This document shows positions 6,696-54,116 of a stretch of 64,000 bases of DNA, piece by piece (the first letter of the stretch is position 1; the number at the start of each line of letters is the position of its first letter). This stretch comes from an uncultured delta proteobacterium (GTDB lineage: Bacteria; Desulfobacterota; Binatia; Binatales; Binataceae). The position numbers and the translations under genes are program-made. Below the pieces are notes generated by a model that did no database searches, was not told the origin of the DNA, and was given only the letters and a program-made list of their open reading frames with translations. Location of the stretch: positions 72,816 through 136,815 of the forward strand of contig CAWBJH010000001.1 in assembly GCA_963789115.1 (NCBI GenBank). The letters run 5' to 3'.

Positions 6696-7187
6696 TCAGG
6701 GCAGTGGGGTGGGGGTGGGCATGATGTAGGTCTCCGGATTCGGCGGCGGCGCCGGTGCAACGCGCCTGAACTCGACCACGTTGGAGGGTTCGCCGCGCGT
6801 TTCGTCCTCAGTCACGGAGATGACGTCGTAGCGATAGACGCGGCCGGTCTCGGTGGCGGTGTCGATATATTCAAACTTGAGCACCTTCTGGAAGCGCTCA
6901 CGGTCGGTAACCGGCAGCCTGACCAGCGGCTCGAACGATTGGCCGGGCTCAGCGCGCATCACGATGAAGCCCGCCAGGTCCTTCATCTTGCGGCCTCGCG
7001 AGTAAAGCTCGGGGCGCGGCCACGCGAGCCGGATTCCATCCTTGTCGGCGCTTGCCGTCAGAGCGACGATCTTCTCGGGCTGCACCAGCTCGGGCGGCAT
7101 CGGGCGTCCCTTCACACCGCATCCCGTGATCGCCGCCGCCACAGAGAGCGCGCCGGCCGCGGCGATCCAGTTTTTCGGGCGCCTCAT
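6696..7187 (-). CDS. Lipoprotein of unknown function at the LppL/LptM-like position between lysA and argH
   Basis: Start MRRPKNWIAAAGALSVAAAITGC has a signal peptide and lipobox. The start ATG overlaps the argH stop by 4 bp. Confidence 0.7.
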   Translation of the reverse strand: MRRPKNWIAAAGALSVAAAITGCGVKGRPMPPELVQPEKIVALTASADKDGIRLAWPRPELYSRGRKMKDLAGFIVMRAEPGQSFEPLVRLPVTDRERFQKVLKFEYIDTATETGRVYRYDVISVTEDETRGEPSNVVEFRRVAPAPPPNPETYIMPTPTPLP

Positions 7188-8674
7188 CGGCGCGTCAGCT
7201 CTGCCAGGCGCCGGCGCACGAGTCGGGGCGCGGGGCCGCCGGCCACCCGCCTTGCCGCGATCGAGCTTTCCGCCGACAGCAGCTCGAGCGCATCCTCGCG
7301 GAACGCGAGCGAGCACTGGCGCAGGTCGTGGATGGTCAAGTCGGTGAGCGGGCGATTGCGGACCGCAGCGTGGCGGGCCAGCAGGCCGACAATTTCATGG
7401 GCTTGTCGGAACGGCACGCCGCGTTTGACCAGGTACTCGGCCAAGTCGGTCGCGAGCGCCCATCCCCCGGCCGCCTCGCGCATCGCCCGGGTGTTGAACG
7501 CGAGCCGCGGCCACAGCCTTGCCATCAAGTCGAGCGAAGGCTTGATCGAATCGAGCGCGTCGAAGACCCGCTCCTTGTCCTCCTGCAGGTCGGAGTTGTA
7601 GGCGAGCGGCAGGCCCTTGAGCACCGTGAGCATCGCGACTAGGTCGCCGGCCACGCGCCCGCTCTTGGCCCGGATCAACTCGAGCAGGTCCGGGTTCTTC
7701 TTCTGCGGCATCATCGAGCTCCCGGTCGCGAACTCGTCGGGGATCGTGACGAAGCCGAACTCGGCGCTCGACCACAGGATGATCTCCTCGCTCATCCGCG
7801 ATAGATGGATGGCCGCGATGGCGGAGGCGGAAAGGAAGTCGAGCACGAAGTCGCGATCCGATACGGCGTCGATGCTGTTCTCGGCCAGTTTCCGGAACTT
7901 GAGCTCGCGTGCGACGAACCGGCGATCGATCGGCAGCGTGGTCGCGGCCAGCGCCCCCGCCCCGAGCGGCATCACCGCGCTGCGCTCGCGCGCCTGTGCG
8001 AAGCGCTCGCGGTCGCGATCGAGCATCTCGACGTAGGCGAGCAGGTGATGGGCCAGCGAGACCGGCTGCGCGCGCTGGAGATGAGTGTAACCCGGCATCA
8101 CGCTGTTCACGTGCCGCCGCGCAACCCCGATCAGCGCGGCGCGCAGGCGCGCGAGGGACCGCATTACCTCGTCGATCTCGTCGCGCAGGAACAGCCGGAG
8201 ATCGAGCGCCACCTGGTCGTTGCGCGAACGGGCGGTATGGAGCTTCGCGCCGGCGGCGCCGATCTTCGCGATCAGCCGGCGCTCGATGGCGAGATGGATG
8301 TCTTCGTCGGAGAGCTCGAAACGGAAACGCCCGCCGCCGATCTCGCGCTCAATCCGCTCGAGTCCCGCCACGATGCGGGCCGCCTCGCGACGCGTGATTA
8401 GTCCCACGTGCGCCAGCATCCGGGCGTGCGCGATCGAGCCGCGGATATCGTGGCGGTAGAGCCGCCGGTCGAACGGCAGCGAGGCCGTGAACGCCTCGAC
8501 TTCCTTGAGCCGGCGGCGCGCGAATCGCCCGCGGATGAGACCTCCGCGCTGTCCAGCGTGCGCCTTCGAAACTTGAGACCTTTTGTTGTCGCTCACGCGA
8601 GGTTGTCGGTTGACACGCGAGGCCAACTCAGGAGAGCCTTCCGCAATCTTCGCAAACCCGGGTGCGTACTCCAT
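7184..8674 (-). CDS. argH: Argininosuccinate lyase. The start is uncertain: either the ATG at 8674, which has an SD supplied by the repeat hairpin, or the GTG at about 8596
   Basis: Full-length ArgH similarity including LIRGRF, the SRNDQ motif and the GSSMMPQKKNPD signature. Confidence 0.9.
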   Translation of the reverse strand: MEYAPGFAKIAEGSPELASRVNRQPRVSDNKRSQVSKAHAGQRGGLIRGRFARRRLKEVEAFTASLPFDRRLYRHDIRGSIAHARMLAHVGLITRREAARIVAGLERIEREIGGGRFRFELSDEDIHLAIERRLIAKIGAAGAKLHTARSRNDQVALDLRLFLRDEIDEVMRSLARLRAALIGVARRHVNSVMPGYTHLQRAQPVSLAHHLLAYVEMLDRDRERFAQARERSAVMPLGAGALAATTLPIDRRFVARELKFRKLAENSIDAVSDRDFVLDFLSASAIAAIHLSRMSEEIILWSSAEFGFVTIPDEFATGSSMMPQKKNPDLLELIRAKSGRVAGDLVAMLTVLKGLPLAYNSDLQEDKERVFDALDSIKPSLDLMARLWPRLAFNTRAMREAAGGWALATDLAEYLVKRGVPFRQAHEIVGLLARHAAVRNRPLTDLTIHDLRQCSLAFREDALELLSAESSIAARRVAGGPAPRLVRRRLAELTRR

Positions 8675-8678
8675 ATGT

Positions 8679-8916
8679 GCCCTCTCCCTGCGAAGCTGGG
8701 CGAGGGTGAGGGTGAGGGACCATACGGCGCCGCATTGGCTGCGCGGCGCCGAGGATTGAAGCGCCGCACGCTACCTCAAGCGCTTGCGACGCCGGCGTTT
8801 CGGCGGGAAGCGGAGGCAGAATCGAATGTCGCTGCCGGCGCAGCGACGCTGCGGTCCCTCTCCCGACGGTCGAAGCGACCGTCGGCCTCTCCCGACCCGG
8901 GAGAGGCCATCGCAGA
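8679..8916. repeat. Structured GC-rich intergenic repeat, copy A. It has two conserved blocks, five perfect or near-perfect hairpins and a variable spacer
   Basis: About 85% identical to 53844-54067. Hairpins include ccctctccc/gggagaggg, cggcgccgcg/cgcggcgccg, gtcgctgc/gcagcgac, cgacggtcg/cgaccgtcg and gcctctccc/gggagaggc. Confidence 0.8.
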
Positions 8917-9195
8917 TGGCGTCCGCGAGCTTCGTGATTACCTCTCATGCGAGGCGAGTCTACCAAAGTTCACGCATCAGGGCGTACAGGCGATAACCGG
9001 CCTTGCGCGCGCTCACCGCGTTGGTCGCATCTCGCACGGGCATCCGCGCGCCGCGCAACTGATCACGCCGTTGGGGTGGGTGATATGCACGTTCATCTTG
9101 TGATGGCACTTGGGGCAGTTGCCGCCCGGCGCGCGCGGGACCGCCCGTAGCTGCGGGCGTGGCGGCCTGAACTGGATGACCTTGCCCAAGCCCGG

Positions 9196-18781: not shown

Positions 18782-18871
18782 GTTGATTGGATGCTCCAGT
18801 GGGGGTAAAGTCGTTTTCAATTACAGCGAGAATGGGAGGTAACGAGGTAGCCAAATAGCAATGTAACGGAG

Positions 18872-19045
18872 AGTAGCGCCAGGACTCACAATCGTGAGTT
18901 GACGAGGTGGAAGCTTATCGAACAATTCGGCGGATGGCTTCCCGGTTCCACGATCGTTAGAGGCGGACAAAACCTGCGGGCGACCGCGCGACAACAACCG
19001 TCTCAAGTGGGCGTAGCAAATCGCTCCGCTACGACCTTCTAAACT
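18872..19045 (+). ncRNA. glmS_ribozyme: glmS ribozyme (GlcN6P-dependent self-cleaving riboswitch). The predicted cleavage site is between A18875 and G18876
   Basis: AGCGCCAGGACU(P1: CACAAUCGUGAG)UUGACGAGGUGGAAGCUUAUCGAACAAUUCGGCGGAUGGCUUCCCGGUU matches the glmS ribozyme core. It is immediately 5' of glmS and the local GC is lower. Confidence 0.85.
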
Positions 19046-19165
19046 CTCCCATCAGGCCGGTCAAAACTCAGCTCGGCAACACGAGACAAGGTCGACGTTT
19101 GCCGGGCTCTCCAGCAGTGCGCTGCGCGGAGAATGTATGCATCGCGGAGAAGGAGAGCACGAAAC

Positions 19166-20998
19166 ATGTGCGGAATAGTTGGTTACATCGGATGGGAAGA
19201 GGCTTGCCCAATTCTGCTCAATGGGCTGCAGAAGCTCGAATATCGCGGTTACGACTCGGCCGGAATCGCGACCGTGACGGACAACGGCAAGATGGAGGTC
19301 CGGCGCGCCGCGGGAAAGCTCGGAGAGCTGCGCAGGCGGTTGGAGGAGTCGCCGCTGGCGGGCAAAATCGGCATCGGGCACACGCGATGGGCCACGCACG
19401 GCCGCCCCTCCGAGGAAAACGCGCATCCGCACAAGGCGGGCCCGGTCGCCGTGATTCACAACGGAATTGTCGAGAACTTCGTCGACCTGCGCGCCGCCCT
19501 GCTCAAACGCAACCACAAGCTGCGCTCCGAGACCGACACCGAGCTGATCGCCCATCTTATCGAAGAGCGCCTAAGGGAGGGCCTGGGGCTCACCGAGGCG
19601 GTGCGGATGGCGGTGCGCGAGCTGCGCGGCTCGTTTTCGATCGTGGTGCTGTGCGAGACCGAGCCCGACAAGCTGGTCGCGGCCAAGACCGCCACGCCCC
19701 TGGTGATCGGCTTCGGCAAGGGCGAGAACTTCGTCGCTTCCGATATCCCGGCGCTGCTGGAGCATACCCGGCGCGCGATGGTGCTCGAAGACGGCGAGAT
19801 CGCGGAGGTCAGCGCCAAGGCGGTGCGCCTGATGAGCTTCGACGGCACCCCGGTAGCGCGCGCCCCCCGCACTATCGAATGGGACGCAGTCGCGGCGACC
19901 AAGGCCGGCTTCCAGCATTATCTGCGCAAGGAGATCAGCGAGCAGCCACAGGCCTGGATCGACACGATGGCGGGGCGGGCCAGCGCCGGCTCGGCGGCGG
20001 TGACCTTTGAGGACGAGGTGCTGCCGCCGGGCGGTCCCGAGGCGATCGGGCGGATAGTGTTCGTCGCGGCGGGCGCCTCCTACATCACCTCGCTGATCGG
20101 CAAGTACATAATCGAGGAGCTGAGCGGGATTCCGGTCGAGGTCGACTATTCGCACGAGTTCCGCTACCGCCAGCCCACGATCGACCGGCGCACGACGGTG
20201 ATCGCCGTATCGCAGTCGGGCGAGACCGCCGACACGCTGGCAGCGATGGAAGAGAGCAGGCGGCGCGGGAGCCATCTGATCGCGGTGACCAACACGGTTG
20301 ACTCGTCGATCGCGCGCAAAGCCGACGCCCGGATCTACACGCGATGCGGCCCGGAGATCAGCGTCACCACCACAAAGTGCTTCCTGACCCAGATCGAGGC
20401 CTACTACCTTCTTGCGATACACCTGGCGGCCCGGATGGGTAGGCTTTCGGAAGGCGAAGGCGAAGCGATACTGAAACCGGCCTTTGCCATTCCGGCGCAG
20501 ATCGAAACCGTGCTGGGACTGGAGGATCAGATCAAGGCGATCGCGCACAAGTACTTCAACGCACGCGACTTCTTGTACCTGGGACGCGGAATCAACTTTC
20601 CGGTCGCGCTTGAGGGCGCGCTCAAGCTCAAGGAGATTTCCTACATCCACGCCGAGGGCTACTCGGCGGGAGAGATGAAGCACGGGCCGATCGCGCTGAT
20701 CGACGAGTCGATGCCGGTTGTGGTGATAATCCCGCACGACAACGTGTTCGAGAAGACGCTGTCAAACCTGAAGGAAGTCGAGTCGCGCAAAGGCAGGATA
20801 ATTGCGCTTACCGATCGGTCGAGCGCCGAGTTGAAGAGCGTTGCGCAAGACATCATAGAGGTTCCCGCCACCCATCGGATGCTGACGCCGGTGCTGATGA
20901 CGGTGCCGCTCCAACTGCTCGCCTATCACATCGCAGTGCTGCGCGGCACCGACGTCGATCAGCCGCGCAACCTCGCCAAGTCGGTGACGGTGGAGTAG
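19166..20998 (+). CDS. glmS: Glutamine--fructose-6-phosphate aminotransferase
   Basis: Start MCGIVGY with catalytic Cys2, after an AGGAGAG RBS. SIS domains and the C-terminal ...VAKSVTVE are present. Confidence 0.95.
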   Translation: MCGIVGYIGWEEACPILLNGLQKLEYRGYDSAGIATVTDNGKMEVRRAAGKLGELRRRLEESPLAGKIGIGHTRWATHGRPSEENAHPHKAGPVAVIHNGIVENFVDLRAALLKRNHKLRSETDTELIAHLIEERLREGLGLTEAVRMAVRELRGSFSIVVLCETEPDKLVAAKTATPLVIGFGKGENFVASDIPALLEHTRRAMVLEDGEIAEVSAKAVRLMSFDGTPVARAPRTIEWDAVAATKAGFQHYLRKEISEQPQAWIDTMAGRASAGSAAVTFEDEVLPPGGPEAIGRIVFVAAGASYITSLIGKYIIEELSGIPVEVDYSHEFRYRQPTIDRRTTVIAVSQSGETADTLAAMEESRRRGSHLIAVTNTVDSSIARKADARIYTRCGPEISVTTTKCFLTQIEAYYLLAIHLAARMGRLSEGEGEAILKPAFAIPAQIETVLGLEDQIKAIAHKYFNARDFLYLGRGINFPVALEGALKLKEISYIHAEGYSAGEMKHGPIALIDESMPVVVIIPHDNVFEKTLSNLKEVESRKGRIIALTDRSSAELKSVAQDIIEVPATHRMLTPVLMTVPLQLLAYHIAVLRGTDVDQPRNLAKSVTVE

Positions 20999-21039: not shown

Positions 21040-22901
21040 ATAGGGGGTAGCGGCGGACCGCTACTCCCCTGCCACACCACCGGACATGCGGGTCCGCATC
21101 CGGCGGTTCGGAAGGTTGAGGTTAATCGGCAAGGCGAGGAACTCCGAGTCGGTCGTAGTAGCGGATGGTGAGTCCGGTCTGGACCAGCTTGGCAGCGCGA
21201 TACCACCAGCGCCGTCCGGTGACAGCGGCCTCGGCCGCCGCGACGTGAGGCAGTCCGAGTCTACGCAGCTCGGTGTAGATTTTGGGGCCACGCTTCCACT
21301 GCTTGAGTTGCAGCGCACGCAGACGATGGCGAATCCACTTGTCGTGGTCAGCGAAGGCTCCCGGTGTATCCGCCAGTTGGAAGTACTGCTTCCATCCCGG
21401 CAGATAGCTCCGTAGCTCCGCCACCACCGTGCGCAGACTTCGCCCGCCGCTGCGCCGGGTAATCTGGCGCACCCGTTGCCTGAGCATCGCGGTGGCCTTG
21501 GGAGCGACGCGGCGCATGACCGCACCGCCCTTGCCGTACCAGAAGCTGAAGCCAAGCAAGCTCCGCTTCGATACCGGCGCCACCGCGCTCTTTTCGCGGT
21601 TGACTCGTAGCCGGAGCCGCGCGTACAGACGCTCCAGCGCCGTCATTACCCGCTCGCCCGCGCGCTTGGACCGCACGTACACATTGCAGTCGTCGGCATA
21701 GCGGACGAAGGCATGGCCGCGCTTCTCCAACTCCTTGTCGACCTCGTCGAGCAGCAGATTGGCCAGCAGCGGTGACAGTGGTCCGCCCTGCGGCGTCCCC
21801 TCCAGGCGCTCCACCACTACCCCGTTGGCCATCATGCCGGCCTTGAGGTAGCGGCGGATTAATCGCAGCAGGCGGCTGTCGCCGACTCTTCTCGCCAGCC
21901 TTCCCATCAGCACATCGTGATTGACGCGGTCGAAGAATTTCTCCAAGTCCACGTCCACCACCCAGCGCCGGCCTTCCCTGACGTAGCGCTGCGCGGATAA
22001 AACCGCGTCGTGGGCGCTGCGCCCCGGTCGAAAGCCGAAGCTGTGCTCCGAGAAGCTGGGGTCGAATAGCGGCTGCAGCACCTGCAGGATGGCCTGTTGG
22101 ATAAGCCGGTCGAGCACGCACGGGATGCCCAGTTCGCGCATCCCGCCGCCCGACTTGGGAATCTCCTGCCGCCGCACCGGTTTCGGCTGGTAGGTGCCGC
22201 CCAGCAGTTGCTCGCGCACCCCTGACCAGCGCTCCATCAAGCATTGCGGCAGTTCTTCCACTGTCATCCCATCGACCCCGGGGCTGCCCCGGTTCTCCCG
22301 CACCCGCGCCAACGCCGCCTTGACGTTGCCGCGCGCGACCACCTGCTCCATCAGGTGGTCGTCTCCCGAGCGCACCTTCCCGTTCGTCATCGTCGGCGCT
22401 TCGCCACTTCGCCCAGCCCTCGGAGCTTCACTCCTGGGCTTGAACGCAAGTTCCGCTTGCGCGGAGTTCCGGCGCCTGGCGCGGTTCGGACTCACGATGG
22501 TTTCGCTCTCCCTTCCGTTCGGCCCTTCACCAACTCGGCTTTCAAGGCCCTGCCCTCTCCGGCTGGCTACTACGGCCTCGGCTGACTTCTCGCGCCGCCT
22601 TATGGCGTCACCCTTCCAGGCGCAGGGCGAGATCTCCCCAGGTAAGACTCCGTGACCTTCCCCGCACAACCGCCGGATCTACGCAGTGGCTCCTTGGCCG
22701 CGAGGGCTTCGCGGTCTTTTGCCCGCTCGCCCTGAGCCACCGCGCCTTGTATCCGATTCCTGTTCGTCGGCTCGCGGGTTTGCTCCACGCTTCTTTCAGC
22801 GATTGCCTCGCGGCTCATCGCCTTGCGCTTCGCTAGTGCTCGCTGCGGTCTGCTCACACAGGGGACTTTCACCTCACAAGTCACGCGTCGTGCTGGGCAC
22901 A
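21040..22901 (-). mobile_element. Bacterial class C (IIC) group II intron, about 1.86 kb, with boundaries approximate at the 3' end
   Basis: The 5' GUGUG lies directly after the U-tract of a rho-independent terminator. The RT/maturase ORF is internal. Domain V- and VI-like hairpins lie downstream of the ORF at about 21030-21095. Confidence 0.75.
21122..22390 (-). CDS. Group II intron reverse transcriptase/maturase, about 422 aa, with no endonuclease domain
   Basis: RT motifs including YADD and a C-terminal X/maturase region. The start is set to MTNGKVRS. The upstream part of the long ORF covers intron RNA domains I-III. Confidence 0.85.
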   Translation of the reverse strand: MTNGKVRSGDDHLMEQVVARGNVKAALARVRENRGSPGVDGMTVEELPQCLMERWSGVREQLLGGTYQPKPVRRQEIPKSGGGMRELGIPCVLDRLIQQAILQVLQPLFDPSFSEHSFGFRPGRSAHDAVLSAQRYVREGRRWVVDVDLEKFFDRVNHDVLMGRLARRVGDSRLLRLIRRYLKAGMMANGVVVERLEGTPQGGPLSPLLANLLLDEVDKELEKRGHAFVRYADDCNVYVRSKRAGERVMTALERLYARLRLRVNREKSAVAPVSKRSLLGFSFWYGKGGAVMRRVAPKATAMLRQRVRQITRRSGGRSLRTVVAELRSYLPGWKQYFQLADTPGAFADHDKWIRHRLRALQLKQWKRGPKIYTELRRLGLPHVAAAEAAVTGRRWWYRAAKLVQTGLTIRYYDRLGVPRLAD

Positions 22902-53525: not shown

Positions 53526-54116
53526 ATGAACCACCACGACGCGTACGGCAAACGCCTTATGGGAGTGGTGGCGGGGGACGCATTTGTGCCCAATCGAAAG
53601 ATCAACTACGGAGGCATACTCAGCGACGGCGATATCAAACCCAAGATCGACGGCGTGGTCGGTGAAACGTTGGCGGTCGAGATACAGGCCGGGTGGTCGA
53701 AGCCTGCTCGGGCCGCCATCCTGGATCTCATTTGCAGTGACGAGTACCCGTCGAAACTTCTGCTCGTGATCGGCCCTCCGAACAGTGGCGGGTACGGCGG
53801 CCCGCGCCACAACTTCTACACCAAAGCTCGAGGGTTTTTCTTCGCCCTCTCCCTGCAAAGCTGGGAGAGGGTCGGGGTGAGGGACCTTGCGGCGCCGCGT
53901 TTGGCTGCGCGGCGCCGAGGATCGAAGCGCTCCGGCCGTTGCGTGGTTGGCCCTGGCGAAAAAAGGCGCGCGCAACCAAATGTCGCTGCCGGCGCAGCGA
54001 CGCTGCGGTCCCTCACCCGACGGTCGCAGCGACCGTCGGCCTCTCCCCTCTGGGAGAGGCCATTGAAGAAGCTCCGCCGGCAAGTTTGTCAAGGAACTTC
54101 CCACTCAGGACCGTAG
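53526..54116 (+). CDS. Hypothetical protein. The first ~105 aa look genuine. The C-terminal part is read through the structured repeat and is doubtful
   Basis: GGAG RBS. N-terminus MNHHDAYGKRLMGVVAGDAFVPNRKINYGGILSDGDIKPKIDGVVGETLAVEIQ..., possibly PD-(D/E)xK-like. The ORF runs into repeat copy B. Confidence 0.35.
   Translation: MNHHDAYGKRLMGVVAGDAFVPNRKINYGGILSDGDIKPKIDGVVGETLAVEIQAGWSKPARAAILDLICSDEYPSKLLLVIGPPNSGGYGGPRHNFYTKARGFFFALSLQSWERVGVRDLAAPRLAARRRGSKRSGRCVVGPGEKRRAQPNVAAGAATLRSLTRRSQRPSASPLWERPLKKLRRQVCQGTSHSGP
53844..54067. repeat. Structured GC-rich repeat, copy B
   Basis: It has the same two blocks and five hairpins as 8679-8916. Loop nucleotides differ while the stems are conserved. 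Confidence 0.8.

Follow-up and report, generated by a model that had tools for sequence, protein, structure and literature searches.

A 64,000-nt stretch of DNA from an uncultured member of Candidatus Binatota (called the window throughout) carries nearly the same array of GC-rich hairpins at two sites, each time wrapped around a different spacer. In a sequence-only reading the two copies had been taken for an undescribed family of structured repeats, either REP/MITE-like or encoding a structured RNA. The question raised by this locus is what kind of element it is, at which level (RNA or DNA) its hairpins are maintained, and how it came to lie at two unrelated sites.

Several classes of bacterial repeats are relevant for comparison. 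REP, BIME and REPIN sequences, reportedly described by Stern in 1984, by Bachellier in 1999 and by Bertels and Rainey in 2011, are short GC-rich extragenic palindromes that come as inverted doublets and whose arms are better conserved than the spacer between them; they also occur inside operons, where they form stem-loops in the mRNA. Typical of REP and REPIN are tens to hundreds of copies and a cognate RAYT gene (a Y1/HUH transposase) that has the repeats at its flanks. MITEs as well as ERIC, RIME, Correia and BOX elements are 100-300 bp long, non-coding, modular and structured, and are present in some strains only.

Results

Architecture of the two copies

Within the 64-kb window, blastn delimits the shared stretch to positions 8679-8916 (copy A) and 53844-54069 (copy B), and no third copy is found there. 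The claim of two copies was borne out, with a first block of ~86 nt (8679-8763 in copy A, 53844-53929 in copy B), a second block of ~95 nt (8822-8916 and 53976-54069, respectively), spacers of 46-56 nt and an end of copy B at 54069. The arms are 88-95% identical between the two copies and block 1 differs at ~10% of its positions. The spacers (8766-8821, 56 nt, in copy A and 53930-53975, 46 nt, in copy B) are unalignable, and blastn detected no similarity of either to the other or to the remainder of the window. From left to right, each copy consists of a left unit, hairpin H3, the spacer, hairpin H4 and an inverted right unit containing hairpin H5; the gap between the two units is 120-131 nt long and holds H3, H4 and the variable spacer.

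Copy A is flanked by a small ORF and by argH of an arg operon, and its flanking genes lie on the minus strand. Its left unit (8680-8718, plus strand), which is of the BoxC/TM type discussed below, starts with the C-block CCCTCTCCC (8680-8688), followed by a loop (8689-8697) and by two G-blocks separated by the loop TGA, namely GGGCGAGGG (8698-8706, one mismatch) and GGGTGAGGG (8710-8718); hairpin H1 spans 8680-8706. Also on the plus strand lie H3 (8725-8751; CGGCGCCGC / GCGGCGCCG, 9 bp) and, beyond the spacer, H4 (8828-8847; GTCGCTGC CGGC GCAGCGAC). The right unit (8853-8907) is an inverted TM-type unit read on the minus strand, with GGTCCCTCTCCC at 8853-8864 and the hairpins H5 (8864-8884) and H6 (8885-8907; CCTCTCCC / GGGAGAGG).

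Copy B has a 3'-truncated gene on one side and a HAD-hydrolase gene on the other, and its flanking genes lie on the plus strand. Its left unit (53845-53886, plus strand) is composed of CCCTCTCCC (53845-53853), the loop TGCAAAGCT, GGGAGAGGG (53863-53871), TCG, GGGTGAGGG (53875-53883) and ACC. It is followed on the same strand by H3 (53890-53917, 10 bp, perfect) and H4 (53982-54001), and on the minus strand by the right unit (54007-54060) with H5 (54018-54038) and H6 (54039-54060).

The five hairpins previously proposed to be perfect all exist. Copy B has each of them without a mismatch, whereas H1 of copy A contains one (in GGGCGAGGG) and H3 of copy A lacks its last pair. A sixth, long-range helix had been missed. 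It is formed by GGGTGAGGGACC (53875-53886) and its perfect partner GGTCCCTCACCC (54007-54018) in copy B, and by GGGTGAGGGACC (8710-8721, plus strand) and 8853-8864 with one mismatch in copy A. This helix encloses H3, the spacer and H4, and was recovered in every fold, whichever strand was used and whether the parameters were those of RNA or of DNA.

The left unit is a near-canonical BoxC/PIT/TM_ECO motif

The motif TM_ECO, earlier called BoxC and PIT, is an intrastrand-triplex motif described by Holder et al. (NAR 2015, PMC4666352), with earlier reports on BoxC/PIT by Bachellier (1990s) and by Hoyne and Maher (2000, 2002). It follows the pattern CCCTCNCCC N3-6 GGGNGAGGG N3 GGGNGAGGG and occurs 3610 times in 262 proteobacterial genomes, always in intergenic positions, without strand bias and often as inverted pairs; it has neither promoter nor terminator activity and is associated with local rearrangement (PMC4666352). 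The E. coli motif adopts an intrastrand triplex when its DNA is single-stranded, a structure that Holder et al. did not see in vivo (PMC4666352).

The left module CCCTCTCCC-loop-GGGAGAGGG-TCG-GGGTGAGGG matches the published motif almost base for base. The three 9-nt blocks (CCCTCTCCC, GGGAGAGGG and GGGTGAGGG) have nearly the same sequence as in TM_ECO, the 3-nt second loop TCG of copy B is the one present in E. coli site 20 (CCCTCTCCCTGTGGGAGAGGGTCGGGGTGAGGGC), and the mismatch of copy A occupies the same position as in the 'mm' variants. When 53844-53886 was compared with E. coli by blastn, sites covering at least 80% of the query were found in 4085 of 5426 complete genomes, and the best hits listed were 82-87% identical over 93% of the query. 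With at most one mismatch allowed, the three blocks (CCCTCNCCC, GGGNGAGGG, GGGNGAGGG) are found in both left units (8680-8718 and 53845-53883), and the same three blocks are present in the right units on the minus strand.

Loop lengths set the element apart from the published motif. Loop 1 of the left units is 9 nt long, as compared to 3-6 nt in TM_ECO, and loop 2, which is exactly 3 nt in TM_ECO, is 3 nt in the left units and 23 nt in the right units, where it forms a hairpin. The strict TM_ECO pattern has no match in the window, and two matches once loop 1 is allowed to reach 10 nt. The element departs from this strict pattern in loop lengths only.

The arrangement of the units is likewise that of BoxC/TM_ECO: the element is intergenic, is found on either strand, forms an inverted pair in which GGGTGAGGG faces CCCTCACCC, and lies at sites of local rearrangement. 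The hrpB-mrcB gap of E. coli K-12 has the same topology as the element, namely TM(+), 16 nt and TM(-), with the GGGTGAGGG / CCCTCACCC blocks facing each other as in the window. Here the gap between the units is 120-131 nt and holds two extra hairpins, in contrast to the 16 nt of hrpB-mrcB, and the host belongs to Candidatus Binatota, whereas the published occurrences are from 262 proteobacterial genomes. Since the left unit is near-canonical and the right unit is the same three-block motif in inverted orientation, we regard the element as an expanded inverted BoxC-type pair. The term 'undescribed' had to be given up, as the end modules are the published BoxC/PIT/TM_ECO motif together with a widespread hairpin-carrying variant of it.

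Because the blocks are identical, the base triads of a triplex formed here would equal those of TM_ECO. The left unit is also a formal G-quadruplex motif, an alternative non-B structure to the triplex: its G-rich strand reads G3 N3 G3 N3 G3 N3 G3 (8698-8718 and 53863-53883, plus strand).

The right unit carries a hairpin in its second loop

On the minus strand, the three blocks of the motif recur in the right unit, where loop 2 is 23 nt long and folds into H5. The 3' module was captured by the pattern CCCTCNCCC, 12-36 nt, CCTCTCCC, 3-7 nt, GGGAGAGG, which occurs twice in the window against a chance expectation of 0.00. Among the matches listed, this pattern is present in more than 120 IMG/VR contigs, often with several matches in one contig; these lie on both strands and also form inverted pairs. 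Their middle segment is almost always a hairpin whose sequence varies. The listed matches contain 163 distinct middle segments, 103 of which have an uninterrupted helix of at least 4 bp, with 78 distinct arm sequences; 71% of the middle segments fold at -5 kcal/mol or below, as compared to 37% of shuffled sequences. The IMG/VR loci (L004-L123, e.g. L031, L035, L051, L060, L069 and L100) share a widespread unit consisting of CCCTCACCC, a variable hairpin (its loop often being TTC or TGC) and CCTCTCCC-loop-GGGAGAGG. The triplex database would miss this hairpin-carrying variant, since its loops are limited to 6 nt or less. When the left unit was compared with the reverse complement of the right unit, copy B reached 70.5 (shuffle maximum 67.5), and the 64.5 of copy A fell inside the shuffle range (maximum 69.0).

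A resemblance to an Rfam family was also found. The minus strand of 54009-54062 in copy B matches whalefall-1 (RF01762) with 27.3 bits and E=1e-5, short of the 37 bits set as gathering score; copy A gave no whalefall-1 match at E<=10. A search of the whole window at gathering scores and of both copies at E<=10 returned only this sub-threshold match and noise for the element, and in 12 contigs rich in the hairpin-carrying units no unit reached a gathering score, a tRNA being the only family found. Whalefall-1 was rated likely RNA by Weinberg et al. (2010, PMC2864571), who described it as a stand-alone ncRNA from whale-fall metagenomes only. In its consensus (a CUCUCC hairpin, a second hairpin and GGGUGAGGAC), the blocks agree in order and in sequence with those of a BoxC/TM unit with a hairpin in loop 2. 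The right unit on the minus strand shares with whalefall-1 the CUCUCC/GGAGAG hairpin, a variable second hairpin and the following GGGUGAGG; it differs in being one half of a palindromic DNA repeat, with a sub-threshold score for copy B only. Judged from these sequences, whalefall-1 may represent one subtype among these DNA repeats.

A wider proposal is that all BoxC units with a hairpin in loop 2, including whalefall-1 and both right units, form one unrecognised cross-phylum class, and that the Binatota composite is a mobile REPIN-like doublet with its own trans-acting machinery. We consider this proposal speculative and rather unlikely; if true, the class would so far have been missed both by the triplex database, with its loops of 6 nt or less, and by Rfam.

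Elsewhere in the window, a glmS ribozyme (RF00234, 84.3 bits) is located at 18864-19014 (plus strand), upstream of a 621-aa ORF (19133-20998), and group II intron domains are located at 22522-22817 (minus strand; RF02001 with 121.6 bits, RF01998 with 41 bits). The 515-aa ORF adjoining these intron domains (21122-22669, minus strand) probably encodes the intron-encoded reverse transcriptase.

Folding and distribution of the differences between the copies

The copies fold far more stably than shuffled sequences (z -4.8 to -8.4), on both strands and also with DNA parameters. In the two blocks, copies A and B differ at 3 of 114 helix positions and at 15 of 64 other positions (Fisher p=2e-5). Both observations would be expected if the element encoded a structured non-coding or cis-regulatory RNA with six helices kept by selection, and the avoidance of stems by substitutions fits selection on RNA structure as well. 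Further points in favor of such an RNA come from the wider class: the resemblance of the copy B minus strand to a family rated likely RNA (PMC2864571), the retention of the middle hairpin with 78 different arm sequences among the matches listed, and a modest same-strand excess, again among the matches listed, of IMG/VR units with a downstream Shine-Dalgarno sequence and start codon (49 vs 29) or a T-run (18 vs 6).

Against an RNA stands that the helices are palindromes, which fold equally well on either strand and with DNA parameters. Each of the three helix changes breaks a pair in copy A. The previous statement that the differences avoid the stems is supported. Between the two copies there is no compensatory or double change in the 114 helix positions, a comparison of n=2 with little power. 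The orientation of the element speaks against an RNA as well: both copies are on the plus strand, with genes on the minus strand at copy A and on the plus strand at copy B, and they are therefore oppositely oriented with respect to local transcription. No promoter-like site was found at the element and terminator-like matches are weak only. Neither copy reaches an Rfam gathering score, copy A lacks the whalefall-1 match altogether, and the 12 unit-rich contigs gave no Rfam family except the tRNA. Finally, the orthologous site is empty in relatives and the gene arrangements are disrupted, as detailed below. Taken together, the opposite orientation, the strand-equal folding, the lack of compensation, of an Rfam score and of orthologous conservation make a dedicated structured RNA very unlikely.

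Two other candidate functions were discarded. An intrinsic terminator was rejected, as no T-run follows H6 and the one weak minus-strand match, at H4, is confined to copy B. Protein-coding frames through the element were rejected as well, as they have no homologues and their downstream parts are mutually frameshifted between the copies.

Copy A separates a small ORF from argH

Copy A lies in a minus-strand arg cluster (argB-argD-argF-argG-...-argH). ArgH homologues place the host in Candidatus Binataceae, phylum Binatota. The best match of the window ArgH is 82% identical, the relatives L224, L225 and L226 being 79-82% identical, and the GTG start of argH (7184-8596, minus strand) matches the homologous N-terminus of the relatives. 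A 58-aa Cys-rich small ORF follows argG (9013-9189, minus strand) and is conserved in the window and in the three relatives, for instance at 9855-10031 in L226 (where it is a 58-aa gene call) and at about 9857-10033 in L225. Its sequence, MGKVIQFRPP...CPKCHHKMNVHITHPNGVISCAARGCPCE..., contains a CxxC ... C ... CxC pattern and has no match in Pfam. In these three syntenic Binataceae relatives the stop of the small ORF overlaps the start of argH (GTGA), which suggests translational coupling of the two genes there.

In the window, the small ORF-argH junction contains ~410 nt (8600-9009) that are absent from the three relatives, with copy A at the center. Direct repeats, CGCGGTGAGCG (9020-9010) and CGCGTGAGCG (8599-8590), flank this stretch, whose outer parts (82 and 95 nt around copy A) are not common to copy B.

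The terminal hairpin of copy A had also been suggested to provide the Shine-Dalgarno sequence of argH. A GAGGG is indeed located 5 nt upstream of an in-frame ATG at 8674, and in the mRNA the GGGAGAGGG motif would form the 3' side of a stem of 9 bp. Starting at this ATG would add 26 codons to argH which have no counterpart in the relatives and whose GC3 is only ~63% (counted by hand), and the homology of ArgH starts at the GTG at 8596. A Shine-Dalgarno role of copy A is therefore doubtful.

The arg region of other Binataceae also contains TM-pair elements, which are different from the one described here and occupy the hslU-argB gap (5306-5455 in L226, 5197-5447 in L225). One of them fits the strict TM_ECO pattern (CCCTCTCCC GTGACC GGGAGAGGG TAA GGGTGAGGG), and in the L225 element both loops are expanded into hairpins. 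The hslU-argB gap of the window has no TM-pair element.

Copy B adjoins a truncated gene

The gene upstream of copy B (53526-53795, plus strand) is truncated at its 3' end: it corresponds to residues 1-90 of a homologue of 145 aa (84% identical; P0122, L228). The similarity breaks off at 53795, leaving 48 nt up to copy B, and the final 55 codons are absent from the whole window. It has no match in Pfam. From this comparison, 53526-53795 is probably a pseudogene made by rearrangement next to copy B. The 48 nt to the left of copy B are further unique sequence not common to copy A.

A short-read contig from the same population (JBAPPA010000145.1 of the MAG GCA_049279895.1, L229), whose MAG has an OTC identical to that of the window, ends at approximately position 53898 of the window, i.e. 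55 nt into copy B and inside H3. This end could reflect an assembly break at a repeat or a drop in coverage at a GC hairpin.

Searches for further copies and for signs of mobility

Searches for the composite, i.e. for units combined with H3, H4 and the ACC/GGT extension, were performed with exact patterns, with ORFs and by blastn in collections that exclude the host genome, and the composite was found nowhere else. By blastn, PLSDB contains no composite copy. An exact 21-mer pattern had only one chance match in genome contigs, inside an ExbD gene, a 28-base pattern had no match in metagenome contigs, and five composite-specific patterns had either no match in IMG/VR or chance matches in coding sequence encoding LRGAEE; exact-pattern scans of this kind miss diverged copies. 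At the protein level, a search of 5.8 billion protein clusters with all six frames joined into one query revealed no spurious ORFs across further copies, and a search of 1.84 billion representatives with the read-through ORF 53526-54113 gave matches in the domain of the upstream gene only. When both copies were compared by blastn with 2 Mb of loci, including 80 loci with HAD homologues and the three Binataceae arg loci, only the BoxC-like ends matched. The designation as a family was accordingly not sustained, with no third composite copy in the window or in the collections searched, which exclude the host genome. Since these searches detected the central hairpins H3 and H4 and the ACC/GGT extension at no other site, the case for a dispersed repeat family is built on two copies (n=2).

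Exactly two detectable copies, in the window and in the same collections without the host genome, would also be expected from a one-off ectopic duplication or gene conversion of two BoxC-type clusters, without a family or a mechanism of mobility. Unrelated spacers and rearranged flanks are expected at unstable TM_ECO loci (PMC4666352) and agree with this explanation. The ~10% differences in block 1 together with the different spacers count against it and indicate that a one-off event would not be recent; further Binataceae carry related TM-pair elements in gaps elsewhere, and the MAG contig ending inside copy B weakly suggests assembly trouble at a repeat. We consider a one-off event improbable.

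The empty orthologous site and the size of the element bring a classical MITE into consideration, i.e. a deletion derivative of an IS that is mobilised in trans via its terminal inverted repeats. The element resembles MITEs and the mosaic repeats ERIC, RIME, Correia and BOX in its size of ~230 bp, its non-coding, modular and structured nature, its variable internal spacer and its pattern of presence in the window and absence from relatives; its ends are imperfect inverted repeats (GCCCTCTCCC / GGGAGAGGCC, 9/10), and a direct repeat of 10-11 nt bounds the larger insertion at copy A. However, no target-site duplication was found at 8679/8916 or 53844/54069, the boundaries of the shared 238 nt, and the direct repeat bounds ~410 nt whose outer parts are not common to copy B. 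Because of the missing target-site duplication and the unshared unique flanks, we do not equate the 238-nt stretch with a mobile unit. What look like terminal inverted repeats are the outermost hairpin arms of the paired BoxC-type units, a motif that Holder et al. could not connect with transposons (PMC4666352), and no parent IS with these ends was found in the window or in the collections searched. A classical MITE is thus an explanation to which we assign little likelihood.

Discussion

The best reading of the data is that the element was inserted or rearranged, at the DNA level, into two unrelated intergenic sites. The evidence for insertion of DNA includes the empty orthologous site in three relatives and the disrupted arrangement of the flanking genes at both loci. 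In our view, each locus is probably a lineage-specific, non-coding composite palindromic DNA repeat built as an inverted pair of BoxC/PIT/TM_ECO-type units. A unit comprises the C-block CCCTCNCCC, a loop, the G-block GGGAGAGGG, a second loop and the G-block GGGTGAGGG; the left unit is near-canonical, the inverted right unit has H5 in its second loop, and the gap between them would have grown to 120-131 nt with H3, H4 and the variable spacer. Pairing between the facing blocks GGGTGAGGGACC and GGTCCCTCACCC would allow the element to extrude in its entirety as a long branched hairpin or cruciform.

Such a composite repeat would be dispersed at the DNA level in a manner similar to REP, REPIN and BIME sequences, either by a trans-acting enzyme that works on hairpins of single-stranded intermediates, or because the non-B structure provokes recombination or template switching. 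No transposase or RAYT is known for BoxC. The stems would be kept by maintenance of the palindromes or by the needs of the dispersal process and not by an RNA function, with loops and spacer drifting while the palindromic arms persist. Effects on expression would be a by-product, e.g. stem-loops in the arg mRNA that might uncouple the small ORF from argH.

Of the two alternatives offered by the sequence-only reading, the REP/MITE-like one points to the right neighborhood, whereas the structured RNA is disfavored by the lack of compensation, the opposite orientation, the lack of a score at the Rfam gathering level and the empty orthologous site. Like REP and REPIN sequences, the element may be an inverted doublet of GC-rich palindromic units, although its two units align above shuffled sequences in copy B only; its arms are better conserved than its spacer and, in the case of copy A, it lies within an operon. 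It differs from them in lacking a GTAG/GGAG-type 5' tetranucleotide and in having a three-block triplex motif with accessory hairpins in place of the single palindrome of REP. From MITEs and the mosaic repeats it is distinguished by the absence of a target-site duplication and of a detectable parent IS, and by terminal repeats that are BoxC hairpin arms.

An apparently new structured element is thereby re-filed under a described class of repeats, which prevents a false call of a novel RNA. The known range of the BoxC/TM motif is extended to the uncultured phylum Binatota, where its 9-mers are almost those of E. coli and where it is elaborated with embedded hairpins that are invisible to the published triplex searches (loops of 6 nt or less). 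Whalefall-1 is suggested to be a relative of these DNA repeats and not an isolated ncRNA. The two loci add two cases that fit the published link between this motif and rearrangement: at copy A a putatively coupled gene pair has been split, and at copy B a gene has been truncated.
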